Shown here piece after piece: positions 34,542 through 64,000 of a stretch of 64,000 bases of DNA. How positions within the stretch are numbered: position 1 is the stretch's first letter; every line of letters begins with the position of its first letter. The notes under the pieces are model-generated. The model was not told the origin of the DNA. It made no database searches and was given only the letters and a program-made list of their open reading frames with translations. This DNA is from Hydrolagus colliei. Taxonomy: Eukaryota. A program made the position numbers and the translations under genes. The stretch is taken from positions 3,100,001 to 3,164,000 of the forward strand of contig CM068772.1 of NCBI GenBank assembly GCA_035084275.1. Direction: 5' to 3'.

Positions 34542-34735
34542 GCGACCTGTCGGCGTTGAGCCAGCCTCAGCTGCAAGCCATTGTCGGCGGCAACTCCATG
34601 TTCCTCCAGAGCCAGCAGCCCCTTCTCCAGGCTCTGCAGGGGCCGCTCGGGATCCAGATGTTCCAAAGCCAGCTGCCCTTCCCAGGCCCCATCCATCACA
34701 CTAACCCCTTGTCCTGTCTCTTCCACAATGTCCAG
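34542..34735 (+). CDS. MBD6: MBD5/6 coding exon 7
   Basis: ttgcag|GC...CAG|gtaagt, 194 nt. Ends NPLSCLFHNVQ versus MBD5 NPMACLFQNFQ. Confidence 0.9.
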
Positions 34736-34787
34736 GTAAGTGGGCGCCTGCGGGCGGACATGGAGTTGCGCCGTGTTGTATCGAATG

Positions 34788-35140
34788 GGAAGCTCCGTTA
34801 GCTCAGTGGTTAGATGGCTCGCCTGACAAGCGCGAGAGACCTGTGTTTTGAATCCAGGCAGGTCAGGGTGAAACCTTGGGCAAGTTTCCTTACTCCACAC
34901 ACACACACACACACACACACACGCGCTTAATACTCCCCCCAAAAAACCACAATAATAAAAATTGGTTATTTTCAATCCACGGCTGTTTGTGGGGGACGCT
35001 GCTGTGCGCAATTGGCTGCCGCGTTTCGCCCACAAAATATACAGCCAATTCACTTTGCAGTATATTCTGTGAGGGACTTTGAGACATCGATAAGACATGA
35101 AAAGCTCTACATCAAATGCAAGGATTATTATTAATATTAT
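34788..35140 (+). mobile_element. Full-length tRNA-derived SINE (~350 bp) with internal (CA)n and (ATT)n tail
   Basis: A-box AGCTCAGTGGTTAGA, body GGGCAAGTTTCCTTACTCCA(CA)n, GCTGTGCGCAATTGGCTGCCGCGTTTCGCCCACAAAAT, tail ATCAAATGCAAGGATTATTATT. Confidence 0.88.
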
Positions 35141-35194
35141 TAAAGCATTATTTTCAACGTCTCACTGGGTTTTAATTGATATTTTACTTTGCAG

Positions 35195-36088: not shown

Positions 36089-36105
36089 GTGGGTGTTACT
36101 GCGGT

Positions 36106-36445
36106 AATAACAACAACAACTTGGATTTGTATCGCGCTCTCGCCTGACTCCACGCCGAACGGCGTCTCAGAGCGGGATCCCGTGGCTGAGCTGGTGGGGG
36201 TTGGGGGGGGGGGGGGGGGGGGGAGAAGGCGACCGAAAGCACCGTCGAAAAGAAAGGTCTTTAGCCGAGACCTGAAAATAGGAAAGGAGGGGAGGGTAGC
36301 GGTAGTGAAGGGAGTGAGGGGGGGAATTCCAGAGCCTCGGGGGGTGGTGGCTGAAAGCACGGCCACCGATGGTGGAGCGGAGGGTTCGGAGGCCAGACCC
36401 GGTGGAGCGAAGGCAAAGGGTGGTGGTTGTAAGGGGAGAGGAGGT
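36106..36445 (-). mobile_element. 5'-truncated L2 LINE
   Basis: Reverse strand LRSTGSGLRTLRSTIGGRAFSHHPPRLWNS / FRSRLKTFLFDGAFG. (CAA)n tail at 36106-36120. Confidence 0.85.
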
Positions 36446-36743
36446 CAGAAAGGAACTATTATTATAATAATACTTGTGTTTGATATAAAGCCTCATATTG
36501 TCTACAGTGTCTCCACCAAACACAGGATAGCTGTACAGTATAAGATTCTCTCGGGTTACGTTATTGGAACAGAACCACACAAACATGACATACGCATCCT
36601 GCGGATGTCTCTGAAATCCAGCACCAGGGACTCAACGGCCAGAGTGTGGAGCACTCTAACCCAGAGGGCTTTGCTCCTCTTCCCCTTCCCTTGGCCCCCC
36701 ACCCAGAGACTCCTGGCTCATAACCCTGTACTTTCTCTGCCAG

Positions 36744-42447: not shown

Positions 42448-42534
42448 TTATTTGGTGACGTTCTTCATTCGAGCCTCGATGCCGACAAAATTTCCCTCAA
42501 TCACCGCCAGGTTCTCCTTCATGGTGTTCTGAAC
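42448..42534 (-). CDS. DCTN2: DCTN2 (dynactin p50/dynamitin) last coding exon
   Basis: ctacag|GTT...TAA. VQNTMKENLAVIEGNFVGIEARMKNVTK* versus human [28 protein letters not shown]. Confidence 0.95.
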   Translation of the reverse strand, partial: VQNTMKENLAVIEGNFVGIEARMKNVTK

Positions 42535-42644
42535 CTGTAGCAGACATGGGAGGTGAGTTGACTGGAGAGGCGGGCGAGCGAGCGCACATAAAGTCACGAT
42601 AACTACACCTGCTGCTGACTCATCAGCACTACTCGATAATACTG

Positions 42645-42972
42645 TAATAATATCCTTGCATTTGATATAGTGCTATTCACGTCTTCTAGACGTCTCAAAG
42701 CGCTTCACAGAATATACTGTAAAGTGAATTGACTGTATATTTGTGGGCGAAACGCGACAGCCAATTACGCACAGCAGCATCCCCCACAAACAGCCGTGGA
42801 TTGAAAATGACCAATTTATTACAGGGTTTTTCGAGGGATTATTATCAGGCGTGTGTGTGTGTATGTGTGTGTGGAGCAAGGAAACTTGCTCAAGGTTTCG
42901 CCCTGACTGGAATCGAACCCAGATCTCCCGCATGCAAGGCGAGTGCTCTAACCACTGAGCTACAGGTCTCCT
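42645..42972 (-). mobile_element. Full-length young tRNA-Ala-derived SINE
   Basis: Reverse strand GGAGACCTGTAGCTCAGTGGTTAGAGCACTCGCCTTGCATGCGGGAGATCTGGGTTCGATTCC (A box, TGC anticodon loop, intact B box) through a tail ATCAAATGCAAGGATATTATT. Confidence 0.9.
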
Positions 42973-43339
42973 CCCAGAACTCAGCCAATATCACACACAA
43001 AACCCACTCCACTTTTACAGTATGTATTCCGTGAAGCACTGCGACACGATAAGGGGCTACATCAAGGTCTGCATTTCCGCAAATCCACGACTGAATTCAA
43101 TTGGAGCGTCACAGAATGGAGGAGAGGCTGGTCCAGTGATTACATTACATCCCGAGGCGCCTCTTCTGCAGGCCGAAATAGCAACGTTTTGTTGGTTGTA
43201 TCACACCTTCAGGCTCTCCCAATTTGTGACTACACTTAAAACAGGGGAACTGAACTGGGCAGTAGCCATCTCTGTGTGTGTGTGTGTCTGTGTCTGTGTG
43301 TCTGCGTGTGCGTGTGTGTCTGTGAAGTAAATACTGTAC

Positions 43340-43431
43340 CTGGCTTAACAAAGTTGTGTTTTCCTTCAGTGTGCCTGTGATGATCTGCTGAGTGGAATCC
43401 AGGTGAGTCAGCAGCTGACCAAATTGCATGG
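43340..43431 (-). CDS. DCTN2: DCTN2 coding exon (92 nt)
   Basis: tttcag|CC...CAG|gtacag. (A)[30 protein letters not shown]. Confidence 0.95.
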
Positions 43432-43833
43432 CTGAAACACAATCAGACACGTCAGGCCAGTTCACCAGCAGCTGAACCTCCACACACGCTGACATATATA
43501 TATACACACATATATATATCCCTCCCCAAGAATCTGTCCGTTCCCTCTGGGAAGAGCGAGAGGACTGTGTTCAGCACCCAGCAATTCCATGTTAAGATAA
43601 AAAATATATATATTTTTAATGGTTTAACCATTTAACACACATTGTGCAGTCTGGTTTGGTAAATATTTTCTGCTTTTCTAATCCCTAATCCTCCCTCTTC
43701 CCGCCACCCACCCACCCCACCCCCAGTCCTCTGCTCGGGTCAGATACAGTGACTGTCCAGTGCGTTGGGATGTCCTCCTGACGTGAAAGGCGCTGTCTAT
43801 ACAAGTGTAATTTTGTTGTTGCTGGAATCCTAC

Positions 43834-43936
43834 CTTGCTCATGGAGCTCCTTCACAGTAACTAGCCGCTGGACTACCTGTGGGAGGGTGGTAGCCATTGC
43901 GTCCCATTTCTGCACCAGCTCATACAGCTGAGCTAC
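43834..43936 (-). CDS. DCTN2: DCTN2 coding exon (103 nt)
   Basis: gcag|GTA...CAA G|gtagga. [34 protein letters not shown]. Confidence 0.95.
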
Positions 43937-44237
43937 CTGCAGGCAACAACAGGGAGGGAGGGAGGGAGTGAGTGACCGTGATCTGAGCACATCACAACAA
44001 CACGATGGAACAGGCTCCAGGGGCTGAATAGCCAAACTTCTGTCTCTATGTTCCACGATTGCCTGTCCAGGCGAATGTTAAACGATCTTACGACACCACA
44101 AGGAAACAGAAGTTTCAGCCATCCTCCAGATTAATCTATTATGATTTACGATCAACAAGCTCGGACACAAGATGTGATTAAAGCTAAACTAGATGGTGCA
44201 ACATTTCAGAATGCGCGGATAGAGACAATCGACTGAC

Positions 44238-44309
44238 CTTGCTCTGAGTCTCTGCGTCCTCGCTGGCTGTTTTGTGCTTGGCGATCTCGTTCAGCTTCCC
44301 CAAGACACT
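44238..44309 (-). CDS. DCTN2: DCTN2 coding exon (72 nt)
   Basis: ttaag|AGT...AAG|gtcagt. SVLGKLNEIAKHKTASEDAETQSK. Confidence 0.94.
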
Positions 44310-44760
44310 CTTAAGGGTAAAAGAATAAGAATCATTTCAGATGTGATCAAGAGAGGCATTGGACAGCTGCCACAGGGACCAGAGATGCAATATTTCTTCT
44401 TGGTTTTAAGATCAAGTGCATTGTCTAAGCATTTAAAATGGCGCAGAATGTTTAAAAACTCCCTCATTTTGAAGCCCAGTTTCCAACGGTAAAATAAATA
44501 TAATTATTTAACCAATTTTAATGCCGAATTTAGGAATTTCCCAAATGTGCCCCGCTGTCACTGTTCCCGAGTGGCCCGCAAGGCTCGGTCACTCATTCTC
44601 CCACAGCGTTTCTCAGCCACAGCCTCTATGGCTTCTCTCATTCAGATCCTGCTTCCCAGCAGATCAAGAGTTGGGTCAGACTGGAATATTAAACAGTAGT
44701 ATAAGTAGTTCATCTTCTTCTTCTTCGCCCTCTCATGTCGACACACACTGAGGAACTTAC

Positions 44761-44838
44761 TTGTAATCTTGCTTCAATCTGATCAAGTGTTGCTGAATCC
44801 AATGTGCTCACTTTAGCCTGAAGAATCTCAATGGTTCC
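44761..44838 (-). CDS. DCTN2: DCTN2 coding exon (78 nt)
   Basis: tgtag|GGA...CAA|gtaagt. GTIEILQAKVSTLDSATLDQIEARLQ. Confidence 0.94.
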
Positions 44839-45237
44839 CTACAGGGACAAGGGAAGAAGGAAAGAGAAGTTCAACATCTGACAGATTGAATTTTACAACC
44901 AGTCCCACCCTGACAGTTACGTTTGTCTCTATTGGAATATCACTAGTTTTTTCAGACATCTTCCTGATGTGATAGGCACTTGGTAAATGTAAATAACCCT
45001 TCCTCCAAGCTGATAATATTAATAATAATCCTTGCATTTGATATCGCGCTTTTCACGTTTAATCAATGTCTCAAAGCGCTTCACAGAATTTACTGTAAAG
45101 TGAATGGATTTGTATATTTGTGGGCGAAACGTGGCAGCCAATTGCGCACAGCAGCGTCCCGCAAAACCAGTCGTGGATTGAAATTATTTACAGAGCACCT
45201 TTCACGTCGGGTCTAGGATAAAGACGGAGATGCTTAC

Positions 45238-45276
45238 CATTAGACACGGGCCCTGCAATCCGACAGTAAGTGGGTT
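45238..45276 (-). CDS. DCTN2: DCTN2 coding exon (39 nt)
   Basis: tgtag|AAC...ATG|gtaagc. NPLTVGLQGPCLM versus human NPLSAGLQGACLM. Confidence 0.92.
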
Positions 45277-46594
45277 CTACAGGAAGGAAAAACAAAACAT
45301 AACAAGATAAATGTGATGATTAAAACAAGTAGCGAGATTCTGAAGCCCCTGAGAGCTAACCTGTGCCATTAGCAATGACAGCAATGACCAATTCATCATT
45401 CCTCACTGAAGGAAAAATAGATGTCATTATACCAGGCTAATAATAAGCCTTGTTCACCTTCCAACAAGCAATACAAACATTCGGCTGAGCCAACAGAAAA
45501 GGCAGCAAAAAAAAACTAAATTTGTAAATCCAAAATACAGTAAGATTCGCATGAGTATGATCTGTAATTGCTTAGGTGGTGAATCCACCCAAATCCTGTT
45601 CAAGAGTTTATATTCTATACAAATTTGACTTAACACAAGGCTTAGCATATGCCCTATTAAATGTATGGTCCCACGACTGATGTGACGTTTGCTGTGGATC
45701 AGTTATTTGCATCATCAAAGAGGTTTTCTCTGCCTCTTAAAACGGATGCACACTGGCTTCAGATCAATATATGGGATTACTTCCCTTACTGAGTTAATTC
45801 CTCGGAATTGTCAACCAGATTAAGCGTTACAGAGAGAGAGAGAGAGAGAGAGGGGGAGGGAGGGAAAGAAAAAGTACTGCTGCTGCCGCTGCTGTAATAA
45901 TCCCCGATTACAGGCCGTGTGAGCAGCGAGGGAAATTCTGGTACAGTGAAGATTCTGCGTTGCAACCATCCGCTGGTGATTGAAGAGCAAGGAAATTAAA
46001 CAGACTGTTGGTGGTGGGTGGAAGCCATTTAGAAATTGGTGGCTCGCAACTCAATAACGGCAACACTTGGCAATCATCGTTCCATTTAAGTCCAATCCTG
46101 GGATGGCCTGCCAGTGAGAGAGATCGGCAGTGAATCAGAAATGTAAATCTGGCACGTTGCATCTGGACTGTGAAAGCAGCCAATGGGTCCCGCCTGCTTT
46201 ATTCACGTACTGACTGGCTTCCGTGTGGAAGTATCGAAGTAAAGAAATATCCAAGTTTCCTGAATTAAGTAGTAGTAATAATGATAATAATAATAATCCT
46301 TGCCTTTGATAAGAGTGCCTTATCACACCTTCAAGACCCATTAAAGCACTTCACACGGTAGCCCAAAGCCCAATATCGCATGGGAACCTGCTGGTCCTTG
46401 CACCGTTTCAAGTGATGCTACTCACAATTTTTGCCCCGTCACAAAACATGAGGAACCAGTCAAGGTGATTGACTGAATGAAAGGGAAAACAAAGGCATTC
46501 TATTCCCAAGCAGGGGACATCAGGCGATTTGACAAGCATACAATAAATCTACACATTGGTTGACAAGAAACCAGGCTTGCGAGATTGTCTGTAC

Positions 46595-46660
46595 CTGTTT
46601 ATCAGAGGATGTGCCCACAGCGATCTCCAGCTCTGACAGCCGTTTCTCCAGCTCCGCCAC
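46595..46660 (-). CDS. DCTN2: DCTN2 coding exon (66 nt)
   Basis: tacag|GTG...CAG|gtacag. VAELEKRLSELEIAVGTSSDKQ. Confidence 0.94.
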
Positions 46661-47019
46661 CTGTAGGAAAACATTGACAAAATTGAGACTGAATTTAATA
46701 AAAAATGTAAGAATTTTTAAAATTATTTACACCCACTAATAAACCACCCCCCCAACCCGCACCCCGACCCCCACACGAGAGAAAAACATTGAATCAAATC
46801 TGCAACAATAAAAAACGTGCGATTTTCCATACACAGGTAAGTCCGGAGGGCAGCAGATTTTGTGACTGGGGTAGAAAGAGCTGTGTGTGCTGGGAGACGC
46901 TGCCAGTTTTACCCGGTAAACACTCTACCCATGAGGAACGCCTGTGGATATGACCTCAGCGGTTGCTCACTCGCACTCGTACGCCACTATAACACCCGCC
47001 TCCGTCACCTCATCCTTAC

Positions 47020-47167
47020 CTTTGATGCCTGAGTGAACTTGTACTGCTCCGGTCGGTAGTATAACTCATAAGTGATGGCATTTACATCAGATCCTTTACC
47101 GGAGCTTTTGTCCACCGTCGAGTGTCCCTTTCCACTCTTTGTGACGTCCAGTTGGGCAAGCAGTCGC
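47020..47167 (-). CDS. DCTN2: DCTN2 coding exon (148 nt)
   Basis: gcag|G...AAG|gtaagg. RLLAQLDVTKSGKGHSTVDKSSGKGSDVNAITYELYYRPEQYKFTQASK. Confidence 0.94.
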
Positions 47168-47589
47168 CTGCACACAGATCACAAAGAATAATTAGCGCGG
47201 ATGATGTACAATACCATTATGTTTTGCGACAGGATTCACATTTCAGATGTAATGTACTGTCACTCTAATACGTATTGTTTGGAGGCTAGACCGACTACCA
47301 CATTTGCTTTCATAACAACATTCTCCCACCATTCATTACACATTTCTTGTAGATGCATTTCCACCCTTATTTGTTCGAGTCATTAGTTTTGTGTCCCTGA
47401 CTGCGTCTGCCTTCAACGAGCTTGATGTTGCAGAAAAAATTCTCAAAATTGAGACTGAATTAAAAGTGTTCCAGAACCCCCGCACCAGCTCAAGACACAA
47501 AGGCAAACGGTGAGAGATTTTCAGCCCCTGACACTGCAGGCTGAGGGGAGAACGGTCAGGCTGTGATGCACAATGAACCTCATAGAGCA

Positions 47590-47797
47590 TGGTGCCGTTT
47601 GGAACTCCATCCTACAGTCCCTACACCTCACCTCACCCCACCCTCCCTTGCCTGCTTCAAGGCTTGTCTCGATACCTTTCTCTTCGACGTTGCCTCCAAC
47701 CCCCTACCACCCTCCCACCGATCCTGATCCCTGTCCAGCGCCTTGGGACGTCCTCCCAACGTGAAAGGCACCGTGTAAATTTAATTTGTTGCCGTTG
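47590..47797 (+). mobile_element. L2 LINE 3' fragment
   Basis: TGGAACTCCATCCTACAGTCCCTACACCTC...CAGCGCCTTGGGACGTCCTCCCAACGTGAAAGGCAC...TTTGTTG. Confidence 0.78.
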
Positions 47798-47808
47798 GCG
47801 TCCCTTAC

Positions 47809-47969
47809 TTGGCCAGGGCCCCCTCGGGATCGGTCAAGTCAATGGCCGCGTCCGGTCCCAGCACCTTCTCCAGCTGTAGTGTGACCAGGTGCTGCTTCAG
47901 GGTTGAGACTTGGTTGGCCAAAGCCACTGGGGTCAACTTCTCTTCAGCAGAAGAATCCTTCACTGTACT
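47809..47969 (-). CDS. DCTN2: DCTN2 coding exon (161 nt)
   Basis: cctag|AGT...GCC AA|gtaagg. [53 protein letters not shown](K). Confidence 0.95.
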
Positions 47970-49639
47970 CTAGGAGAGAAAGGCAAGGTCGTCAGTCAGC
48001 GAGTACTTTTTTGGTTTTTTTTAAAAACCTCCGGGGAAAGGAACATTCTCAAATTGATTAATATAAACGCAATATGATAGACCCTGTCTCTGCAATAGCC
48101 CTACACAGCAGAACTCAAAATCAACCCCGCTATCCTGGATCTGCCAGGTTTACAGTAAAAATCACCTACATCTTTTCCACCCGGACAAAATCTTCCAATC
48201 AGTTTGCGTGGACTCAGATTCTAAATGGTTCACTCCTACCTCTCACTGCACAATGAAGGGCGACATTTCCATTGTATTCTCTACACTACAGGGTATGTTC
48301 ACAAACTACTGTTTACCCATCACGTTTTTCCTTAAGATAATTTTATTTTCTGTTGCAGATGAGTTGTTATCAGTGGCATTAGTGAGTTCCACACATTTCA
48401 GTTGTCAGTCAGTGCATTGTAGGAAAGGAGATGACTGCGGTGGGGGAGGGGGGGGGGGCAGGGGGGAAGATGGGGGGCAGGTAAATAGGAGTTTGTGAAC
48501 AGACTGTACATGAGGTGCTACTCAAGAACCACCAAGCTCAATGAATATACCAAACCAGCGATGGAATGAGGGAAACACATTGTATACAAGTTCTCTGCGG
48601 CAGACCTCTGCCGCAGTTCTCTGCGGCAGACCACAGTTTAGAAAGGGATTCAAATCAACGTTTGAGAAAGGTGAGGAATATTACTGGGTCCCGGAAAACG
48701 CGATTAGCTGAAGCGATTCATGTGGAGAAAAACAGCGGCTTGTTCCTGCAGTCAACGGTTACAGTATCAATACCACAAGTGTGAAATAGTATTAAAATAA
48801 ATCTGTCAAGATGAAGCACTAATGCAGGCAAAACGGTGATATATTTTAGCAGTCCACAAACACGTACACAGAAATCTTGTTTGGTTTTTGTGCTGAAATT
48901 TTTCAATCAAGGTTTTCAAACCAGCCGTGAAATGCATTACCGCTGTCTCGGTTGGCTTATCAGCCCTCTCCACAGCTGGCTGGCTATCTGACAAAAGACA
49001 TGGACACCACGCGGGACTGTGGACACAAGCTCAGAATACTGATAGGAAGCACAATGCTGTAAAGGACGGGGCTTTCAATTCAAAGAACTCCTTCCCGTGC
49101 AATTTAAAATAATATGTTGTTGTTATGACAAGTAATATCTCCTGCGTTCCACTGTCAAGTTTATGTCCCCCACCTACAGCAGAGACTTGTGCAAACAGCA
49201 TCGCAATGGTGGCTCTCCGCAAGCTGGAGTCTATGATTAACTCTGGTAGGTGTGAAGCAGATTGCTCCCTGGGTTACTGCTTTGTGCAGCAGGATTTAAA
49301 GGCCTCGTTTCATATTGCTCTGTGCTTCTGCACATACACAACCCCACAAACGATTATCGTTGTTATTGTCGCACAAACCTCCTCCACGTACTGTCAGAGG
49401 CAAGGCTCCTATCAGAGACTTGCTGGGCTCACCTTCTTTATACAGCACATTTAGATGTGAACAAAGACATTAGTCAAGCCGGGGAGATTTATAACAAAAT
49501 AAAAACTGCTCCTCCCATGAATTCCTGCTCGCCTCTGTCAATTGATCTCAGAATGAATTATTCAGGCTTGTTGGTCGAGCACAGTCCCGTTTGCATCTTC
49601 TTGTCAATAAATGTAATGCATATTGCAATTTGTTAAATA

Positions 49640-50018
49640 AAGCCTTTAAAGCCCTCCATGGCCTTGCCCCATCCTACCACTGAAACCTGCTGGCCCCCTA
49701 CAAACCTACCCCCTCCCTCCACTCAGAGGGCTCCAGCCTGCTCCACGTCCCCCGACCCACCCAGGCCACCTTCGGCGGGCGAGCCTTCAGCCACTCTACC
49801 CACAACCTCTGACCATCCCGCAGTCCATGACTCGCCCCCCTCCCTGGCCTTCTTCAGGTCCCGCCTCAAGACCCGCTCTTTGACGGTCCCATCAGACACC
49901 CTTTCTGTCCACCCTCACTGATCCCGACCCTAGCTCGGCTCTGAAACACTGACTGTCCAGCGCCTTGGGACAGCCTCCCGACGTGAAACCCGCTAGACAA
50001 ATGTAACCGTGTTGTTGT
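49640..50018 (+). mobile_element. 5'-truncated L2 LINE
   Basis: FKALHGLAPSY...GGRAFSH...FRSRLKT remnants. Tail CAGCGCCTTGGGACAGCCTCCCGACGTGAAACC...GTTGTTG. Confidence 0.82.
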
Positions 50019-51379
50019 TAAATCCATCTTACTGACCAGCGCTGCACGGTTAGAAGTTTGGCACAGAGATTCCAGAAACAAAGATATTTGCCGAGCATAT
50101 GTCGGATGCATGAGGCGAAGACGCTCACACACTGGCTCCCGCCACAAACAACATCTGTGGAGTTTATCAGGCTTTGCCGACAAGACACTAAAATTAGACA
50201 AATAAACAGAAAATAAAGCGCCATCTGCTGCCAAACTGTGAGGTTCAAATAATTAATTAAAACCGAGAAAAATGGCCAACGAAGAAAGCAACAGCATATC
50301 AACGGGGAAACTGCAGCTATTTACTCATCTGCCATTTTACATCCCAGTCACTCTGCCCATACATAGAATTACTTTGCCGATGGCAATCATAGTTAGCGCG
50401 ATGCAGCGAGAGCAATTCAAGGGTGAAGGTTTATTACTTCAATTATAGCTCGGCCACAGAAAGTTATGTTGATGAATTGTCATTTTCAAATGGAGGTGGG
50501 GGGGGGGGAAGGGCGGAGAAAAGGGAAGAAAGCTAGTATCTGTCTGTCTGTCTAGAAGGATCCTGGAGGAGCTGCTATTTTAATCAGCCAGGCAGTCAGC
50601 TGTGAATTATGAGGCTTCACCGCCATGAACAGTTTTGTAAGATGATAGATTTGCTCTCCCTTCAGGAGCTGGATTCCAAGCATCCGGACAGTGGATGAGT
50701 GCTGGTGACTCATACAAGGAAAGGGGTCAGCAATCTAGTCAATCAATTTGGCCAAACGTTCTTTTCAACCGCGCTTTCGGTCACCTACTTCCCCGTCCCA
50801 CTGGCTTGGCCCCGGGATCCGTTATTGGGAAGCACTCTGGGACGCCGTCCTGCGTGGGGGGGGGGCTACATAAATCCAAGTTGTTGTGGTTGTTATTTAG
50901 AAGGGACATGAATAGGCCATTCAGGCCATCAAGTCTATTCCCCCAATTTATTACATCGTAGCAGATCTTTGAATCCATCTCCCCACTTTTCCAGTTTATA
51001 CCTTTACGTCTAAGGTAAATATCTCCCTTTAAATCATGCCAATAGATCCTGCTTGTATTCCTTCTGGGATAGTGCGGGCTGAAGAAATGCTTGGGGACCT
51101 CACTTCTAACTATGCGCGACAAGCCTCTATGCAAGTTGTTGTTGATGTAACTGGGCAAAAATCTTTTTAAGATTCCCAACAGTCAGCAATATTTCCAATC
51201 TCTGCTCTGGTTATGTTTAATATGCATTTTACCCACTGCTTCTCTTTCCCCCTCACATTTCTTCAAATCCATCTTTCATATTTCTGTTCATGGTTGAAAT
51301 AAATCGTATGAAGCACTAATGAAAAGAATGTGAGGAACGTCTCTCTCACCCTGGAGCCACTGTTAAGTTGGTTTTATAA

Positions 51380-51990
51380 ATAATTCTCCTCATCCCAGGA
51401 TAATAATAGGAAGGAAACTGTTTCCACTGGCAGGTAGTTCGATAACCGAGGGACATAGATTCAAAATAATTGGCAACAAAAACAGGAGAGTCGCGATTCT
51501 TTTTTTAACAAAACAAAAGTTGTTAAGATCAGGAATTCACTGCCTGAAAGGATGGTGGAAACAGATCCAATAACATAATTCAAAAGGCAATTGGATAGGT
51601 AATTGAAAAGGAAAAACTTTGCAAAGATATAGGAAAAGAGCGGAAGAGTGGGACTGATTAGGTGAGTCTTCCGAAATACAATGGGCCAAAATATCTCCTT
51701 CTGTGCTGTAATGTTCTATAATTCTAATCTTTCTCTCTCGTACCGCCTTCAGAGATTCCCCTGCCCACAGCCTGGGTCATGACAAAAGAACATTGCATGT
51801 GAAAACGCTATTTTTAAAATTATTTCAAAAGCAAATTAGATCATTTCTTTTAGGAAGTACATTCTTGGGAGTGCGGTATATAGTTTGGGACATGATATGG
51901 GCGTGCCACGGCGAGAATGGTGGAAGGTGAACTGGATGGACCTTGATCTTCTTTCATCCAGCAATTCTTAAGTTCTTACGTTCCTGTTCT
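51380..51990 (+). mobile_element. Two CR1-type LINE 3' end fragments
   Basis: KLFPLAGSSITEGHRFKIIG and NSLPERMVETD-like remnants ending TTCTATAATTCTA (~51725). A second family end ...GGATGGACCTTGATCTTCTTTCATCCAGCAATTCTTAAGTTCTTACGTTC (~51985). Confidence 0.72.
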
Positions 51991-52625
51991 GGGAAACTTC
52001 GTCGTGAGAACCAACATGAGAGTAAGACTTCTAAACCACTTCCCCAGGTTTGGCATAAAAGATTGTAGCTTAAGCTGCTGTTAGCAGAAACTTAAGTTTG
52101 TAAGATTCCTGAATGTCTTAAGTCAGGAACGCTGGCTGATGTGGGAGAAATGAGCAACATATATTTAGACTACAAGACCTGCTGTTGATCCACAAACCAT
52201 CATTTCTATGATCCACTCTGCTGAATAGATTACAGCACTGTGGCGCGCGTTCGTCAGTGCCTGCAAGTCCCCAGACACACTGGTCCTAATGGTTGGTGAC
52301 ACGCACACATTCCTAGGTCAGAGACTTGACGGAATTTCACCTAAATAAAACATTAGCCAATGGCAAAGAGGATATTCCAGGAGGCTGGGACAGATGAAAA
52401 ATCCAGGACTGATATGAAGAACCCAACCACAAGCCCTTTATAAAAAATAATTGATTCCAGTGTAGATATTAGCAGTCACCATGCATCTCAGGTATCAGCA
52501 CTTAGTAAGTTACAACAAGCAGCTCACATCATTCAACTCTGTCCAGAAAAATGTCTAGTCAATACTTTAACCCTAACCCTACCCCAATACTTGGTTTGCT
52601 ATGGATATGGAAGAAAGATGTTCAC

Positions 52626-53070
52626 TAAGAACATAAGAAGAGGTCCTAACCTCAGTGGTTAGAGCACTCGCCTTGCAAGCGAGAGACCTGGGTTCAATTC
52701 CAGGCAGGACGAAACCTTCAGCAAGTTTCCTTACTCCACACACCTGACTGTTCAACGCCTTGGGACTTCATCTCGACGTGAGAGGCGCTCTACAAATCTA
52801 ATTTTGTTGTTGTGGTTGTTGAAAAGCGTGATATCAAACGGAAGGATTATTATTATTATTAAGGTCAGCTGGACAAAAGAAGACCAAGGTTCATCCAGTA
52901 CACATTCCATCCTAGCAATCCCGTGCACACGTCACGTCCCAAACTATATATTGTATCCCACATCATTATTTCCTGATAGAAATCTATCTAATTTGCGTTT
53001 GAAAGCATTTTCTGCTTCCACCGTCTGTCTCCTTAGGGAGCCTGTTCCTTACATTGGCTGCATTTTGGTG
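52626..53070. mobile_element. Nested insertion: CR1 3' end (minus) split by a SINE (plus) that contains an L2 tail
   Basis: TAAGAACATAAGAA | tRNA-Ala head 52640-52743 | L2 tail to (GTT)n at ~52820 | SINE tail to (ATT)n at 52860 | GCTGGACAAAAGAAGACCAAGGTTCATCCAGT (CR1 resumes). Confidence 0.7.
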
Positions 53071-54049
53071 AATAGGGAAGGAACACTGAGGACAGAAGAT
53101 ATTTAAACAGCTACTTTCAAACAGAAAGTAGGTTTTTCTTTTTTTTAAAATCTATCTGAAGAAGCTCTTACAATCTTACCAGGAAATAAATGGAATCATT
53201 TTCACTCACTCCAAAACACCATAACTCAAACTGCATTTATATCACTCAAAATTTAGAAAAACACTCACATGCTGTCTCAATCGTGATAAATCACCATCCC
53301 CGAGGATCCATACACCACATAAAAAACGTCCAACCTCTCAGTCTGTCATAATTCAAAAATAACAACAGTTTCTGCATTCTCTACATAATTCATTAAAATG
53401 TCCAGTATTCCAAGTGGGTACCTCTCTCGCACAAAAATATCTCTCGCTGCAAATGTCAAATGGCAGATCCATAAGTAAAGTTGACGGCTGCTTTTACCAG
53501 TGATATTTATCATTTCTGACTCAAGTCATTGGAGAAGAAGCAAACGAGCTCCGGCCAAACCAGTTGTAAAACGGGAAAAGTGCATTGGCTTGACTTGATA
53601 TTTCCCAATGTTTATATTTCCCCCCCTCACCCCCCCCCCCCCCCCCCCCACCAGCCAATCAATTCCAATCTATATAAATGACCGATTACATAAATAGATT
53701 TATTTCTCCGCCACACTCCGTCATTTAAATAATGATACCTCATTATGATACTGTTTCGAATCACAGAAATTTACATAACAGAAGGTGGCTATTCAGCCCA
53801 TCACATCTGTGTTCAAAGTGTAATCCATTTAATCGCACTCACTTTCTTTTCCTTCCTCCCTTCCCTCACCCCTTTATGTTGTTCCTTTTCAATTATTTAA
53901 TTCCCTTTTTAAAGCCAATATTGATTATTTCCAACTAAGGTTTTGGTTGTGCAAACTCTCCCATGTCACAGAAATACTCTCCTCACCTCTCCTTTGTTTT
54001 CTTGTTTAATGATCTTAAATTGATGTCATAACAATCCTGTACCATTTCA

Positions 54050-54352
54050 CATTGTTGAGATGTCTCAAAGCGCTTCACAGAAAATATTGTAAAGTGGAAT
54101 GACTGGATTTTGTGGACGAAACGGTGCGGCCAATTGCACACAGTGGTGTCCCACAAACACTCGTGGATTGAGTGACCAATTTGTTTTTCAAAGTTGGTAG
54201 GAATTATTAACTATTAAGGAAAGCGATCCACCAATCACCAAAAAAAACTCATTTCTACTTACTGCTAGGTAAACAAAAAGTATGTGGAGTAACGTTTTGC
54301 CCTGTCTGGGAATCGAACCTGGGTCCTCTCGCTCATTATGATACAGGACTCC
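54050..54352 (-). mobile_element. tRNA-derived SINE
   Basis: Reverse strand GGAGTCCTGTA...CCAGGTTCGATTCCCAG head, and a TGTGCAATTGGCCGCACCGTTTCGTCCACAAAAT...TCTGTGAAGCGCTTTGAGAC body and tail. Confidence 0.75.
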
Positions 54353-54417
54353 GTGATATCCTCTAGTTACTCACCCACTGACCATTATTTTCAGCTACGA
54401 TTCCATACATGTCTCAC

Positions 54418-54516
54418 CTTAATTTGCTCCACCTCTTCAGACAGTTCTTGCATTTCATGCAGCAGTCGCTGGTATTTCTGCTGTGGGCTCTCCTTTACGC
54501 CACTTCCCTCTCCCAG
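54418..54516 (-). CDS. DCTN2: DCTN2 coding exon (99 nt)
   Basis: tgtag|CTG...AAG|gtgaga. [33 protein letters not shown]. Confidence 0.95.
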
Positions 54517-55497
54517 CTACAGAGGAACAAAGCAACGGGAACAATTGATTAATTCAGTTTTACTATCAGAAGACAGAGGCCTTTTGAGCCTGAAAGAAGA
54601 GTTCATTGGAAACAAATTCCTAGCACAAATGCTTAACTGTGCTAAGGATCATGAGCAGAGAGTCATATAGCATTTAAACTGTTTCCAATGTTTGAACACA
54701 GTATTTTTAACGTCCTGAAAGGGACCAACCTTGTGCCTAACGGAGATTGCACTTCCAGCTGTTAAACTGGTACAAGAAGATCAAGTAAATCGAACTCCCA
54801 ACTTCTCTTTAGGGTATTGGTGCATGGAGTAGATCGACACTATAATTGATGCAAGACAGAACAAGAGAGATTCCAAAACGACAGGATCCCCTACTTGTCA
54901 GCTCCTTTGGACGTGAAAGGCGCTGTACAAATGCAATTTGTTATTGTTGTGTAAGCTTCACTGATGGCTGACGAAAGAGGGCCAGTGAATAGAAACAGAG
55001 AATCCTACAGTACAGAAGGAAGCTGGTTCTTTAATGCTGTAGAAAAGGAAATTGTCAATAATACCCCCCTCCCTACCTCATTTTCCTAATACTGTACGCC
55101 AGTATTTTTTCCCAGTGATTAGGTGGAGTGGGTGTGAATGTTATTGCCTTGCTATGTGGGACTCACAAGAGGAACTTGGGTTGGTTTGTTCTTTCCTTTG
55201 GGTAAGTGCAACACTAAAGACTCACGCAAGATCAGTCAACTCTCAATCAAGGAATCAGACACAAAACACACACCATGTGTGTTCTTCTCTGTCAGATATT
55301 TAAAGAAATGCTTAAAAAAGAGCTCATATCTATTCCCTCTAGCCTTTCTTTTATTGCTGTCAATATTTCACTTTGCAGTTTGTACTTGAAACTCGGTCTG
55401 AACACAACTCGAGAAGCTCCAGAGATCAGTAAGTCTATGTGCAAATAAAAAAAATCAAGACATCAACATTGGCAATGCTTGATCATTTCATATTTAC

Positions 55498-55559
55498 CAT
55501 CTCGTAATCTCCAGTTTCATAGCCAGTTCTTCTCGATTTGCTGATCCGATCTGAAAAGT
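55498..55559 (-). CDS. DCTN2: DCTN2 coding exon (62 nt)
   Basis: tgcag|AC...ATG|gtaaat. (D)FSDRISKSRRTGYETGDYEM. Confidence 0.95.
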
Positions 55560-55963
55560 CTGCAGCATAGCACACATTAATAATCAATAAGCAGCTTTTT
55601 CAGAAAATGATTTAACTAAAAATGAGCAATACCATGTTGTATATGCTCATAATACAGACGTCTACAGTACTATTTACTGTATACACAAGCGCTGCTATAT
55701 GCAAACTACCCACGTGACGGGCACTATATAAATACAAGCTGTGCTTATCGTATTGGTTGCTTGTATGCTCGGAGAAAGGCTTAAGTACAACAACAACAAC
55801 AAATTACATTTATAGAGCGCCTTTCACGTCGGGAGGACGTCCCAAGGCGCTGCAGAAGCAGACAAATACTAGGGAAATGCATCTAGTACAGTGTAGGAGA
55901 ACTAGTCAATATTCCAAGGGAACAGTGAAACATGGAAAAGAAATATATCTGTTGGGTTCTTAC

Positions 55964-56060
55964 CAATGTCTTTGGTGCTAACTCGTTTGTCTTTAAATTT
56001 GTCATAAGAAGCATTTGGATTGACCACAATGCGCTCCACGCTCTCGCTGTTCAGCTCCTC
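55964..56060 (-). CDS. DCTN2: DCTN2 coding exon (97 nt); the first constitutive exons lie beyond the right edge
   Basis: tgcag|GAG...ATT G|gtaaga. [32 protein letters not shown] versus human [32 protein letters not shown]. Confidence 0.95.
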
Positions 56061-59000
56061 CTGCATATAAGCAAATCATTAGGGTTCAGCTGACAAGCAA
56101 ACCAACACAAAGGATTACACACAGAATGAAGAAGTAATCAAAGCAATGGGGTTGCAAAAGGAAAAATCCCAAAGCACAACACAATGCAGGAAGTGGGATT
56201 CATTCTGTAATTCAATGCTTGCTGGAGTGCTTATAATTCGTATCAAGCGCATGCAAATTTTTAATATGTATGTGTACAATTTTTTTTAAAAAGGGTACGC
56301 TAACAAGCATAGTAACATGAGTTTAGCTGGTTTGATTCTTGCAAGTCACAAGACTCCAAACTAACACTGAGCATAGCCACGTGCGATCATAATATCACCA
56401 GCACCTACCATGGGTCCACACTATGTAACTACCACTCTGCAATCTAATGGTGTATCGCTACCTCACATACAATGATTGACTACGTATTGAAATATATAAT
56501 AATGTATTCCTAACATCCTCAAAACAATACGACTGATTTCTAGGCATCTGACAGGTTGCCAGAAGGATAGCTGAGGTCAGGACACTAGAATCATTTTTTT
56601 TTAAATGCTTGATGCTGTAACCGTAGGAAAATAGGATAAGTATTCAGGAAGGGTGAGATCAGATGGGCTGAAGGGCGTTCTTCATCCAAACTAATCTGGT
56701 GATTTGGATCGACAATTAAAATTACAACTCAGGACCATCCCAGAAATAAAGGGAGTTTAAAACTTTTTTAAAAACAAACATTGCACTACATATGTTTCTT
56801 ATAAAACAAATCTTTTAGTGTAATGCTTGACATTTGGAAAATATTGTACTGCAAATTGTTCTCATGATCTAGTCGGGCTTCAGCCTGACCACTTTGGCTG
56901 TTGAGCAGCTTTGTCATTTTGCTCATGGGTCTTGAGCTTTGGAAATCTGCCATAATACAAAACATTAAACATCAGACTCCCTGTTATGTTCCCACTAATT
57001 GCTCATTTTCAACATGTTCAATCTTAAATAAAATTCAAGCTCTACACTTCAAAGTTGTTTTTAAAAAGTGTGCTCAGTGTAAGTATCTGTCTGAACGTGG
57101 ATCTAAGATCCACATCATTCTCGGAATCATTAAAAGCAATCATCAGACCTTCAATCAATCATTAATTAATGTCATCATTACATAAGGCATTTCAAGCAGT
57201 TTCTTTTACATGAAAGGCGGGCACTATATAAATAGAAGTTGTTGTTCAATGGCTTTCCGGCAATTGGAACACTTTCTAAACCCCTTCTTCTCCTGAATAA
57301 AGATGGATTTCTTTTTTAAAAAATTGGACTTAATTTGGTTGATGCAGAAACCGCAAACTAATTTTTTGGGAACAATGTAATTGGAGAGCTGCTTGCTCCA
57401 GCAATACAGATGGGACTAAGCAAATCTTATAAGTACTGTACAGTAATTCATCTGAAATTGCACTCAGCTCCTACAGTTACGTAATGCAGACCAACCAGAT
57501 TATCTCCTCAGAATCAACCTTTGATTGTTAACACTCCACGCATCATTGGGAACATGCAAACCAGCCGAATTAAAGGCAATTTCTGATCTCTGATTGCATT
57601 GATGTTCAAGTCTTTATCACACTAAATCAATCCCCTATCCATCAGACAATCAGCATTAACAACTCACATTTGAGCCATTGCCCTGCAATTTAACCTGTTT
57701 ACTTTCCTCCCTTCCAGGAGGGGTCTTGGTTACTACCCCGTCCTCTGATCTGCTCCCTACTGAAGACTGTGTTAGAACCTCATTGAAAAGGTACAGAAAA
57801 TTTCTTTCAAATGTTATATGACAAAAGATAACTCATGATAATTATTTGATGGTCCCAAAGGTTTGAGTTCGCATAAAATTTCAAACAACAAGACTGTTGT
57901 AATTATATAGCACTTGTATAATAATGCTTGCATTTGATATAGCTCACGTCTTCTAGACAACTCAAAGCATTTCACAGAATATACTGTGAAGTAATTGACT
58001 GTATATTTGTGGGCGAAACGCAGCAGCGCACAGCAGTGCCCCACATACGGTCGTGAATTGTGTGACCAAATTATTCGGGGTTTTTTTAGGAATTATTATT
58101 AATTATTATTATATCATTTTATGATATAATACATATTCTGACACTACATATTCTATCCCACAATAGATGTTGTGTGACTCATCAAGCAAGCTATGGCAAT
58201 TTTTCTATTAATGTAGTAGCAAAAATCTAATGTATTAGTATTGATATTTGTTCTTCAATATATAATGGTTGATTTTAACTCAAATATACAGTTGTGCCAC
58301 AATGGTTAATTTATTAATATGAATGATCGGCTCCACAAAAACTCTTCACCCTCTGATGACACTCAACAGGGTGGAGGGAATAACATTGAAGATGTAATTA
58401 AGCTCATTTCATGGTTGCCAAATGAAATTAATTTATAGGGAATTAAATTACTTGGAAGTGACAAGGCCATTTAGTAGATAGTAAGGAACAATTTAAGTCC
58501 ATGCTCATTTAACCTCTTGACAAGATTAAAAGACAGAATATTACAAATAATAATATGATATGGAATTTTTTTAAAAAATCTTTATAAGCCCAGAGAAACC
58601 TAAAACAATTAATTTTGACCAGACTATAAATAAAAGGTGTAGCACACAAAACATTTCCCCTCTCAATTTGACTTTATTGAATCTTACTCAGACTTTGTTG
58701 TTGTAAAAATAAATGCTCTTACCAAAAGAATCAAATCAATAGCTTTTAGGAAATAAAATCCTAAATTAGCAGAAAAACATAAAGGTAAATGTGACTAGAT
58801 TTCCAATCTCTGATTCTTCGATCAGAGGAAATTGGCATGACATACTGTCAATTTTCCACAAGTCTTCGACCCTTATAGGAGAACATGCTACAGATCTTTG
58901 TAAGAGATAAACAAATTGCTAAGATTTATCCAACTCCCAGTTAAGATGCAATCAATGCAAGTGAGAACAATTTTGAATTTTGTTTAACATTCACAGATCC

Positions 59001-59084
59001 TCAAGCTATTGTAGCCCTGAAAGGGTTGAAAGACTTGACATTGTAGCACAAAGATTAGAAGTGTTCAAAGGTCAGGCTTCTTAC

Positions 59085-59090
59085 CAGCTC
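59085..59090 (-). CDS. DCTN2: DCTN2 6-nt microexon (Glu-Leu)
   Basis: Minus strand: ~80-nt pyrimidine tract ...ttcttccttctttggaattgcaag|GAGCTG|gtaaga. Matches the EL insert of human DCTN2 isoforms (…AEFDA-EL-EELT…). Confidence 0.85.
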
Positions 59091-60264
59091 CTTGCAATTC
59101 CAAAGAAGGAAGAATTAGAAGTGAAAAAAGTGGGAGGAGGAAAGGGGAGTGGGAGTGGGAGAGGGAAAAGAGACACAGTGAGAAATTAATAAGATGTTAC
59201 ACAAAGCACAACATAACATTATTAGTGCTCATACAACATTCAAAGCTTCACAGAACAGTTCCCATAATAAGTGCATTGTTGTTCAGTTCATACCAGGTCC
59301 CATTCTTACGCATTATTAAAAAAAAACTTTCAATTCTGATCACAGAATTCAACCATTTCATTGATTGGAGGCAAAGGGAAGAAAACATAATAATGTGGAC
59401 TCAATAAATCAGAAAATCGCTGAGATTCTATTAATATATTAATTTAAAGTGTTCCCGGTTACACTTGTTTGAATGATTTAATAATGACATTAGAATTGTT
59501 GAATAAATAATAAATCAAACTGTAAGATTTCCATGAACCTATACAGTGGTTTGAACAGGATTGTATTAAGAGCTGGATGAGGACATGCAATAAAAAGCAA
59601 TGGGGTGATGATATGAAGTAGCTCAGCTGAGGAAGGGAAAACAAATAACAACAACAAAATTACATTTATAATGGGAGCAAGGACAGATAGGTAACATGAA
59701 GTGGTAGGTATTGAGTTCACAGTTCTAATCTAAGCCCAGGCTAACATAAGGAGGTGACAAAAGGAGGTCAGACACCTTCATAAGGAAGGAAAAAATTACC
59801 GTACGTTTAGGCAATCTAATCACTCTCAGCATACTTCAAGCTGCTGGTGATAAGAAAATAGTACTGGCAGAAGTCAGAGCAAGTCAACTACCCAGTCTAA
59901 CAGCCAAAAATAATGTATGGAGGCTTGGAGGGAATAGAATAACTCCATATGAAGCAGGCGTTTCAGAGAATGGAAGAGCAGATTCCCATTTATGCACTTT
60001 GAGACATCGATAAGACGGAAAGCGCTATATAAATGTAAGGATTATTATTATTATTATTATTTATAATGTTATGCTTCACAGAGCATCCATTTCCTTAAGA
60101 TCCTGATGCATTACAGAATAGCTTTCTGGGATGATGCACCTCATTTGTTCATCCTGACAGTTTTAACATTCACACACTGAAAATCAACCAAGTAGAAAAA
60201 TTACCGCGTAATGTTTAGATGGGTCCTGAGCAAAGGTAGATGAATTTAATGTTCTAACATCCTG

Positions 60265-60510
60265 CACCATAGAATTATACAGCACAGAAGGAGGCCATTC
60301 AGTCCACCGTGCCTGTGCCAGCTCTTGAAACAGCTGTCCAAATTAATCCCGCTCCCCCACTCTCTTCCCATAGCCTTACAAATTTGTCCTCCCCAAATAT
60401 CTGTCCATTTCTATCTTGAAAGTTAGCGAATCTGCTTCTATCGTATTTTCAAGCAGAGCATTCCAGGCCAAATAACTCACTGAGAGAAAAATAATTCTCA
60501 TCCCCCCTGC
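60265..60510 (-). mobile_element. CR1-type LINE 3' fragment
   Basis: CATAGAATTATACAGCACAGAAGGAGGCCATTCAGTCCACCGTGCCTGTGCCAGCTCTT is the reverse of a CR1 3' end similar to 51660-51725. Confidence 0.7.
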
Positions 60511-62224
60511 TCTGTGTTTTTTTTGCAATCAGAGATGGCAGCATTCTCGTTTTTAAACAGTGGATCACACATCATGCAACTTTCACATGGATTTCAGGAA
60601 TATATTTTAGTGTTTAAAAAAAACGAAAACAATCTTGAACCAAGAAAGGTGAAGGCTCAAGCGAACTCAACTGGGGTTAACTCAAATCTTCAACACATCA
60701 TGCCTTGAAATTCACATTCTAAAGAGTTTATACCTCCAATGAGATGCATCCCAAATAATTTCAAAACTAATTACTACTCTTGAACCTTTAAAATAAAGCA
60801 CAAAAGTGAACAATATGCCTCCCCACCCCATTCATAACTTATGCAAAATGCATACAACACTGGTGTAATGCTCACCCACATGGACAATAGTACTTTTGAA
60901 CTCTTCTTCCCAGCAATCAGGGAGAATACTTCTAAGAATTCAGGTTATTAATGTGCCTATTGCTGTTTCATATACTGTAATATATAATAATAATAGCATT
61001 AGATATAGCACCCCTTATCACATCTTTGAGATGTCTCAAAGCACATCATGGAATCTACTGTAAGTGATGATCCATTACAGATGCATGCTTTTAATGAATC
61101 AATATTGTAAGGCACCAGGTTTTATCATTATGTTCAGAGGCAGAAGGTAAGCGGCATTCTGGTTGGAAATTTAAGCTTTCACGTCCTTATTCCAAATCAA
61201 TTTGATATTGAAGATACAGCTCTCTGGCAATAATATTGAATAATTGAAACACAATACTGGATCCTTCTGACTGATTTCACTGTGCAAGGAAATTGCACAG
61301 TGATTATTGTCTCCTGGCAATGTGACTATAGCTCGATGGATGTGGGGTGGGGAGGGGGGTGAAATGAATGTGCAAGGCACAGAGTTACAACATACACCAT
61401 GTAAAAACAGGAGATTCTGAACAGGTAGGTTCAGAAAGTTGAGCCATACCCAAAACACTAGCAAAAAAAACAGGATTTCAATCAACAAAATTTATTCAGA
61501 ATCAAATATTTTCTATGACAAATAGTTTACAGCACAATCCCTCTAGAATTAAATTTTCAGAAATCACTTGACTTCACCCCAGCCCAGTCTGTTATGTGAC
61601 TCAGCTCCAGTTCTTTTTCCCAAAAGAAGTAAACAGATAATGGGATTTATAAAGCAAGACACAAAAACATGAAAGTTAACCTGTTTGTAAAGTAAATTAC
61701 AATAAATTTAACATATTATTATTAAAATATTAATCTTTAGGACTTGGATCTCACCTGGAGAGATTGTGCAGTACACTTTGAACTTTTTTAACCCTCTAAA
61801 TATAGGAATTCAACATAATCAAATACAACTCGTAAGCTTTTTACCCAGATTACTACAAAACATACACTATTGCAATTTTATATATTTGTGGATATGGCAA
61901 ATATGTGACTTAACATTGGATATAATGACATGAATGACAGTAGATAAATCACCTGCAATATCTAATCCAATGCTCACGCCTCAAGAAATCAAAACTATTC
62001 ATTTAAACGAATAGTAATGCTTGATTATAATTAAAGAAAACTGATAGAATTTTAAAGCTAACATTAACTAAATTAATCAGAGGAAACGACTTTTTAATAT
62101 GAATCACTGACAGCCAATGCAGTCAACTGCACATTATAAATGTGGTAGTCCATGTCACAATTTAACCATGTGAAGATTGGAATGGACATTCATCAGATCA
62201 GGCTCATGTTATTCTTATATTTCC

Positions 62225-62612
62225 AATGTTGGTCGCCTATGAATTCCAACCCTGGTTTTGAGCACCTGCTACCAACTGCACCCACTAAACTGTTCTAGTT
62301 CAGTACAGTGTGGGTAAGGTGCAGGATAAAGCTTCCTTTAAATTGCATCTAACAAAGTGCTTTATCCCACCGTCTGCATTTCCATTTGCCACAAGTACCA
62401 TCACTGTAGCTGCTTGGTGCAAAATTGCTCTCAGATCAGTGAAAAATTAAGCTTTGTGCTGTGGTGGACTCACAATCACCAGTAACCAGGAAGCTCACTG
62501 CACCTTCCAGCCAGCAGCAGGAGAAAACTGGCATCCTATCTGTCTGAGCTCGTGGAGCTCAAGCCTCAGACATTAAAGGACAGGATTCTAAACCAGTGAT
62601 ACCACCCAGTCC
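62225..62612 (-). mobile_element. Old SINE-like element with possible LF-SINE affinity
   Basis: Reverse strand starts GGACTGGGTGGTATCACTGGTTTAG...CCTTTAATGTCTGAGG and contains GGAAGCTTTATCCTGCACCTTACCCACACTGTAC. Resemblance from memory only. Confidence 0.35.
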
Positions 62613-62710
62613 TTGTACCTCAGTTGGAATCCCAGAGCTCAGATGCACTGAAGTGATGCTAATGATTCACACTTTTCTATATGGCAATGCAGCACAGCAA
62701 AGTGGAATTG

Positions 62711-62738
62711 CATGCAGAATACATAACAAAAGCATGCA
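62711..62738 (-). promoter_or_regulatory. Two RBFOX-type UGCAUG intronic motifs downstream of the 9-nt microexon
   Basis: CATGCA on plus at 62711-62716 and 62733-62738 = TGCATG on the transcribed strand, at +49 and +27 nt from the microexon donor. Confidence 0.65.
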
Positions 62739-62764
62739 AAATAGTAGCATTTGAAAACTCTTAC

Positions 62765-62773
62765 TTGCGCAAA
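62765..62773 (-). CDS. DCTN2: DCTN2 9-nt microexon (Phe-Ala-Gln)
   Basis: Minus strand ...ctttcccctttgacttcgttgcctggacactag|TTTGCGCAA|gtaaga. With the 6-nt microexon it rebuilds FAQ-EL-EEL, the insert of the longest human DCTN2 isoform. Confidence 0.87.
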
Positions 62774-64000
62774 CTAGTGTCCAGGCAACGAAGTCAAAGG
62801 GGAAAGCATTTTAGGAAAATTGTGGTAAGTCCAGTGCACAAAATGAAATATATCAGCCTCTATCCTGCATCTCTGAGGCGCTCTAGCGAATGGACTAAGG
62901 AGGATGCCAACTTGATTTGTTTTTAAAAAAAACACCTTTAATGTTGATTTTATTTTTTAAATAAAATTTCTTCCAAGCCATACATTATGATTTGTGAGTT
63001 CATCTTTAAAAATCACACTCAAGTTTACAGAACTGGAACCTTGGTTCCTACTCGCCTTTTTTGTATAAAAAGGTGTGCATTACTGAATGCTATAGACAAT
63101 ATTTCATACAATAGCCAAAATATCTGTTTCAACACCATTGGTTCCAGTTAAACCTAGCAATATTCATGGCGCAGTTTAGCAGAATAGCCATTTATCAAAT
63201 GTATATATAGAATGTACAAGGACTTTTTAATGGTTTAAAATAGAAAACAAACAAGCAAACTTATCATGGTCACTATCCTGCAGTGATCATACAACTCTGG
63301 ATAAGTTCTCCACCATTGCACCCAAAGAATGAGCCAGATGGATATCTTGCTAACTGTAAACATTAATCACAAAGCTTAGAAAGGAAACCTGTACTAAACA
63401 GAAATCAGTTTCCCCAATTCCCTCCTCACTGTGGAAGGCTGCCCACCCTTTCTACCCTAGGAAACTTGTGGACTTGCATTTCGTAAATAGAAATGCAATC
63501 AGTAATTTAAAAAACTGAAATCTACAGACATTTAACAACTACCTACACAAAGGGAATAGTAGTGTGCTTTACTTGACTCTATAGAAGTTGACTCTGTAGA
63601 AGTTATTTTCACACAGGCAGTTATATTGGAGACATTCTCTCTCTCTTAATAAAAATATGTATTAATCATGGTGTCTAGATTATCTTTCCTGTATGTTTTT
63701 TGTGATATATACCTCTGTTGCTATCCTTTCTTGAAGTGTTCTTGTGTCATTCACACTGCCCAGCTGGGTGTACCCAATTTCAATCTGTTCTCATATTCTC
63801 ATTAATGTCACTCTATAACCAGCGACTCAGAAGTGCCTAGGTTATACTTTCTGGAAAGGTATGTGGTAACGATGACAAACCTGAGACTGTAAAACCCACT
63901 GTAGGTAAATATGTGACAAGCTCATTCTGTTACCATTCGTAGGGCTGTATAACACTATATATGAAGACCATTTTCCCTTTTACTGTCTGCGATCCTCCTG

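Follow-up and report, generated by a model that had tools for sequence, protein, structure and literature searches.

The DCTN2 microexons FAQ and EL in the chimaera Hydrolagus colliei: a known vertebrate pair with candidate RBFOX sites

The DCTN2 gene and its two microexons

The window analysed in this study is a stretch of 64,000 nucleotides of contig CM068772.1 from the assembly GCA_035084275.1 of Hydrolagus colliei. A large part of its minus strand belongs to the gene for dynactin subunit 2 (DCTN2, p50), the first two exons of which lie past the end of the window and are given here with L002 coordinates. Two very short exons, called FAQ and EL after the residues that they encode, lie between exon 2 and the next flanking exon. 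The features considered are, in the order of transcription:

42451..64000, minus strand: DCTN2 (dynactin p50) gene, portion within the window
L002:4447-4482, past the window end: DCTN2 exon 1
L002:2929-2997, just past the window end: DCTN2 exon 2, the upstream flanking exon (AFNEPD...QFEA), 69 nt, phase 0
62774..62806, minus strand: 3' splice region of the FAQ exon, with a pyrimidine tract at -33..-15, TGC at -14 and a TAG acceptor
62785..62787, minus strand: UGC at -14 of the FAQ exon, a candidate SRRM3/4 enhancer by its position and the published grammar, weak alone
62765..62773, minus strand: 9-nt microexon TTTGCGCAA (Phe-Ala-Gln), by its sequence the orthologue of vertebrate DCTN2 exon 3
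62759..62764, minus strand: 5' splice site GTAAGA of the FAQ exon, read from the sequence
62733..62738, minus strand: TGCATG at +27 of the FAQ exon, a candidate RBFOX site by motif
62711..62716, minus strand: TGCATG at +49 of the FAQ exon, a candidate RBFOX site by motif
59085..59090, minus strand: 6-nt microexon GAGCTG (Glu-Leu), in the context ag/GAGCTG/gtaaga, the orthologue of DCTN2 exon 4
55964..56060, minus strand: downstream flanking exon EELNSESVE...

In the PDB, the flanking exons find their match in chains of dynactin subunit 2, and all three matches to the Dynamitin family in the genome fall within this gene. The closest proteins are those of Callorhinchus milii (98% over one exon), followed by those of sharks and rays at 73-89%; 14 exons can be aligned to the C. 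milii protein, one of them at just 80%. Downstream of DCTN2, at about 29800-36700 on the plus strand, a convergent gene displays long open frames rich in Pro, Ser and Gln, which we take to resemble MBD5/MBD6, the neighbour of DCTN2 in mammals.

The preliminary description of this window had recognized a DCTN2 FAQ microexon with an EL partner 3.7 kb downstream, and its layout proved exact: on the minus strand the exon reads ag/TTTGCGCAA/gtaaga, with TGC at -14 and TGCATG at +27 and +49, it lies in the DCTN2 orthologue between the expected flanking exons, and the 6-nt exon is seen 3,675 nt on, at 59090..59085. With its 9 nt the FAQ exon falls in the microexon range of 3-27 nt; it preserves the frame, is in phase 0 and has AG/GT boundaries, and because the flanking exons are in phase 0 an insert of FAQ, EL or FAQEL keeps the reading frame. 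The next AG upstream of the FAQ acceptor does not occur before -86, and a further TGC is found at -35. By chance, the 10,868-nt intron should contain 0.002 copies of the string formed by AG, the FAQ codons and GT; a single copy exists in 94 kb, at the FAQ exon. When the 43 AG..GTRAG candidates of 30 nt or less are ranked by pyrimidine content, EL is first and FAQ second. The available sequencing run behaves as genomic DNA, with reads across introns, holds no splice information and may come from the source sample; its contig over 61020-64000 shows 3 letter differences, none of them in the FAQ exon or its motifs. The exon, its frame and motifs, its orthology and the presence in the genome of genes of the RBFOX and SRRM3/4 types (Fox-1_C at three loci, SRRM_C at one, with a match over the cut-off) are established by sequence.

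The acceptor of the EL exon is a tandem aag-gag (59085-59093, minus strand), the second AG of which would give a 3-nt exon encoding only Leu. Isoforms with 'L' are annotated in mouse and rat, and a 3-nt Leu exon is also present, with a coverage of 108, in the mouse supplement of Parada et al. 2021 (PMC7821500).

Occurrence of the inserts among vertebrates

The FAQ/EL microexon pair is already known, and the Hydrolagus case is an ordinary one. Hammesfahr and Kollmar in 2012 described DCTN2 exon 3 'FAQ' and exon 4 'EL' in four combinations from ESTs of many vertebrates, found both exons in lamprey and neither in invertebrates, and asked how the inserts could alter Arp1 binding (PMC3583065). The chimaera pair is the same in gene, position (after residue 35), order, lengths and peptides; the species alone differs, the chimaera being unnamed in the available text and supplements of that paper, while the intronic motifs are undiscussed in its section on these exons. 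The presence and the regulatory grammar of the inserts in this lineage had been put forward in the preliminary description as the new part. Presence is not new, because a C. milii RefSeq protein (XP_007907518.1) has FAQEL and lamprey has both exons, and the claim for the grammar falls as well, since the combination of UGC with UGCAUG downstream is the usual one in neural microexons. For C. milii, the FAQ exon may already be listed in VastDB and in Torres-Mendez 2019. Hydrolagus is one more chimaera for a vertebrate-wide exon pair, and hence changes little.

C. milii isoforms X1, X2 and X3 (XP_007907518.1, XP_007907519.1 and NP_001279319.1) are identical to Hydrolagus in the residues encoded by exons 1-2, by the flanking exon and by both inserts, and differ at several residues in later exons. 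The seven members of the C. milii cluster comprise two with FAQEL (XP_007907518.1 and XP_007907521.1), one with EL, two with no insert and two with a VQ model, and FAQ alone is found in none of the seven. Judging from these isoform models, the FAQ exon of Hydrolagus is almost certainly alternatively included.

In mouse, the counterpart of the chimaera pair is an adjacent pair of 9-nt (VastDB MmuEX0013953) and 6-nt exons of Dctn2 with neural inclusion (PMC7821500). The 6-nt exon is identical in sequence in the two species, whereas the 9-nt exon is one synonymous base apart and a 3-nt variant is seen in mouse; the spacing between the two exons is about 1.9 kb in mouse and 3.7 kb in the chimaera.

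We surveyed the isoforms of 259 proteins (the best 120 of 682 matches plus at most 15 members per cluster), a biased sample that consists mostly of predicted models. Among those listed, 107 have no insert, 51 have xxQEL, 43 EL, 22 xxQ alone and 16 some other insert, and 20 did not match the pattern. All four insert forms are present in gar and in three caecilians among the matches listed; together with the published ESTs (PMC3583065) this bears out the four inserts (0, EL, FAQ and FAQEL) of the preliminary description as forms that occur in vertebrates. The 22 xxQ-only proteins among the matches listed are from ray-finned fishes (17), a coelacanth (1) and amphibians (4), with none from amniotes or cartilaginous fishes. 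Although both exons are called invariant in the section devoted to them in PMC3583065, FVQ, CVQ, LVQ, LLQ or FIQ replaces FAQ in 28 proteins among the matches listed, all of them from ray-finned fishes; the FAQ peptide itself is found in 45 (chimaera, coelacanth, tetrapods and 3 unnamed). The chimaera retains the tetrapod form FAQ, and the ray-finned fishes have altered it. Four JGI entries in the lizard cluster (P0177, P0178, P0180 and P0181) were rejected as unrelated short proteins that are not DCTN2.

Expression in other species and candidate regulators

In the mouse supplement of Parada et al. 2021 (PMC7821500) the 9-nt exon is assigned to the cluster 'Neuronal N6', with differential inclusion from E13.5, none in skeletal muscle or heart, and a coverage of 59; the 6-nt exon is assigned to 'Neuro-Muscular NM2', from E10.5, with a coverage of 5,272. 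Both rows have the same flanking junction, so that reads containing both exons may go uncounted. The preliminary description had called the FAQ exon probably neural, which agrees with the neuronal class of its mouse orthologue, and by extension from mouse a neuronal bias of the chimaera exon is very likely. In zebrafish the 6-nt exon has a PSI of 91 in neural tissue, 39 in muscle and 1 in liver, and loses 16 PSI in the srrm3/4 mutant, barely past the paper's threshold of -15; the human event paired with it is labelled NO_REG, not regulated neurally, with a neural dPSI of 0.49, and no row for a 9-nt dctn2 exon was found in the zebrafish neural-exon table (PMC12626424). By the mouse data, EL looks like the broad and dominant exon and FAQ like a later neuronal add-on. 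The same division of labour probably holds in the chimaera, with EL as a broad neuro-muscular exon and FAQ mostly as an addition yielding FAQEL; this hierarchy is not universal, given the xxQ-only isoforms of fishes, coelacanth and amphibians (22 proteins).

Among the 23 TGCATG on the minus strand of 94 kb, the two that follow the FAQ exon are the only ones to lie within 100 nt of each other, and at the rate of the gene the Poisson probability of at least two in 100 nt is 9e-4. Two TGCATG are also obtained in 1,647 of 20,000 dinucleotide shuffles of the same 100 nt (8%), because this stretch is rich in TGC and GCA. TGC alone says little, as it precedes 324 of the 1,548 AGs in the DCTN2 gene (21%) at -20..-6. 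Besides the two TGCATG, the intron after FAQ (62680-62760, minus strand) contains dense TGC/TGCT triplets. The MBNL motif is YGCY, and such an intron might be bound by MBNL or CELF.

Alternative microexons show an enrichment of TGCATG downstream, and in brain, muscle and heart RBFOX favours the inclusion of microexons (Li et al. 2015, PMC4317164). UGC is located between the branch point and the AG in 74-79% of SRRM3/4 targets, and a response to SRRM4 has no strict need for it (10.1101/2024.09.17.613571). Like the neural microexons regulated by SRRM3/4 and RBFOX, the FAQ exon is frame-preserving and shorter than 27 nt, with UGC between the pyrimidine tract and the AG and UGCAUG downstream. From its motifs, we would expect RBFOX to aid FAQ inclusion, with some confidence, while for an action of SRRM3/4 through the UGC the chances appear about even. 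No assignment of the FAQ exon to RBFOX or SRRM3/4 was found in the literature searched, which had most subscription papers and VastDB outside its reach; nor was DCTN2 found in the files covered from the supplements of PMC7935315 (12 of 19), PMC12626420 (12 of 13) and PMC4317164 (4 of 5).

FAQ and EL are laid out differently: the UGCAUG pair belongs to FAQ, and EL has a TGC at -6, no other AG in the 100 nt upstream and no UGCAUG in the 300 nt downstream. A scan of metagenome contigs with 262 pattern matches gave one confirmed locus, L008, which is teleost-like by its exon peptide and covers EL only; the 2.9 kb that it has ahead of the flanking exon contain no FAQ-like exon. The EL flanks are almost identical in the chimaera (59075-59120, minus strand) and in L008:1560-1610, but the TGC at -6 is absent in the latter, where a TGCATG lies 120 nt upstream of EL. 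The differences in layout between FAQ and EL, taken with the comparison of EL flanks, would fit separate control of the two exons.

The inserts in the Arp1-binding arm and competing explanations

The p50-Arp1 pair is structurally solved, and the p50 ruler arm sets the grip of the dynactin shoulder on the Arp1 filament. The preliminary description had the p50 N-terminus in contact with Arp1, and residues 1-87, which are disordered in isolation, do bind Arp1 directly (PMC4091830); the four p50 N-termini have been described as rulers, two pulled taut and two with disordered slack (PMC8047447). Residues 36-40 were without biochemical study as of 2012, according to the section on these exons in PMC3583065, and no later test was found in the literature searched. 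In 5adx_a and 5adx_b, chain positions 1-20 correspond to p50 1-20, and the next position, 21, is aligned to the L of EL. If these chains list modelled residues only, the insert would end an unmodelled linker that adjoins the filament-bound segment, and such a placement would suit a spacer role. The deposited p50 chains 6znl_M, 7z8m_M, 6f38_b and 9b7j_P vary at the insert, with EL, LQ or none, so that the residue numbering of dynactin models depends on the splice choice. The two additional residues of 405-residue p50 chains were rejected as evidence on isoforms, since they vary between EL and LQ from entry to entry.

The best explanation overall, in which we place considerable confidence, is that the window holds the chimaera copy of DCTN2 exon 3, neuron-biased and RBFOX-helped, in the Arp1-binding arm. 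The exon would be skipped in most tissues and included chiefly in neurons, probably with the aid of RBFOX at the two downstream UGCAUG sites, and its inclusion would make the Arp1-binding arm of dynactin p50 three residues longer. The predicted effect on the protein, for and against which we judge the case to be evenly balanced, is a mild tuning, where two filament-binding segments join, of how the four p50 arms are placed along the Arp1 filament. The candidate RBFOX pair also offers a concrete minigene target in a cartilaginous fish.

In the version of the preliminary description, the two exons combine freely into a switch with four states, by which the length of the tether is tuned (0, +2, +3 or +5 residues) in the chimaera lineage. 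The four forms annotated in gar and three caecilians (among the matches listed) or reported from ESTs of many vertebrates (PMC3583065) speak for such a switch, and so do the two p50 arms pulled taut on the filament (PMC8047447). We nevertheless find it unlikely: none of the seven C. milii cluster members is FAQ-only, amniotes and cartilaginous fishes contribute none of the 22 xxQ-only proteins among the matches listed, coverage in the mouse supplement is 59 for FAQ against 5,272 for EL (PMC7821500), and the chemistry of the inserts is conserved beyond the need of a pure spacer.

Alternatively, EL, and above all FAQ+EL, might be a helix builder rather than a spacer: a helix of residues about 27-44, with hydrophobic residues aligned along one face, would form on binding and strengthen the contact with Arp1 or another partner, or create a new one. 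Counted from F33, hydrophobic residues stand at offsets 0 and 5 without insert, 0, 4 and 7 with EL, 0, 3 and 8 with FAQ, and 0, 3, 7 and 10 with FAQEL. The best 11-mer hydrophobic moment in C. milii is 0.24 without insert, 0.30 with EL and 0.53 with FAQEL (0.23 for a caecilian FAQ-only form), although 14 of the 120 orderings of FAQEL score equally high, so that helix register can be considered only a lead. All 51 double-insert proteins among the matches listed, including the fish FVQ, CVQ, LVQ and LLQ forms, are hydrophobic (F, L, V, I, M or C) at the four offsets, but they are related and were chosen by a pattern in which three of these four are already fixed. AlphaFold2 predicts a helix at 27-39 without insert and at 27-44 with FAQEL, with a pLDDT of only about 51-63 in the helix and whole-model means of 53 and 59. 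Furthermore, chicken p50 residues 1-87 alone are 1.8% helix by CD (PMC4091830), and 5adx_a and 5adx_b lack residues 21-36, a gap suggestive of disorder on the filament. On balance a helix-building role is doubtful, and somewhat more so than a four-state switch; as an idea it provides a testable reason for keeping two to five residues in the p50 ruler arm.

Improbable, in our estimate, is an AND gate in place since early vertebrates, in which a neuro-muscular EL and an RBFOX-driven neuronal FAQ, under different regulators, would jointly complete an amphipathic helix (F33, F36, L40, L43) on the Arp1-binding arm. If it were true, the dynactin of neurons would have a shoulder grip or a partner site of its own.

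With respect to tissue, the FAQ exon of chimaeras might be regulated in muscle or heart, by RBFOX and possibly by MBNL on the TGC-rich intron, and not be specific to neurons. RBFOX acts on microexons in brain, muscle and heart alike (PMC4317164), the 100 nt downstream of FAQ are TGC-rich, and the partner EL exon is neuro-muscular; the mouse supplement, however, shows no differential inclusion of the 9-nt exon in skeletal muscle or heart (PMC7821500), and we regard such regulation as quite improbable.

Finally, it is hardly credible that the 9-nt string is an intronic match due to chance or decay and always left out of the mRNA: FAQ is seen in none of five proteins from four shark and ray clusters, neither of two from Carcharodon, nor in the other elasmobranch matches listed, but the chance expectation is just 0.002, the splice sites of the exon are intact, C. 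milii has an annotated FAQEL protein, and order and peptide agree with those of mouse and human.
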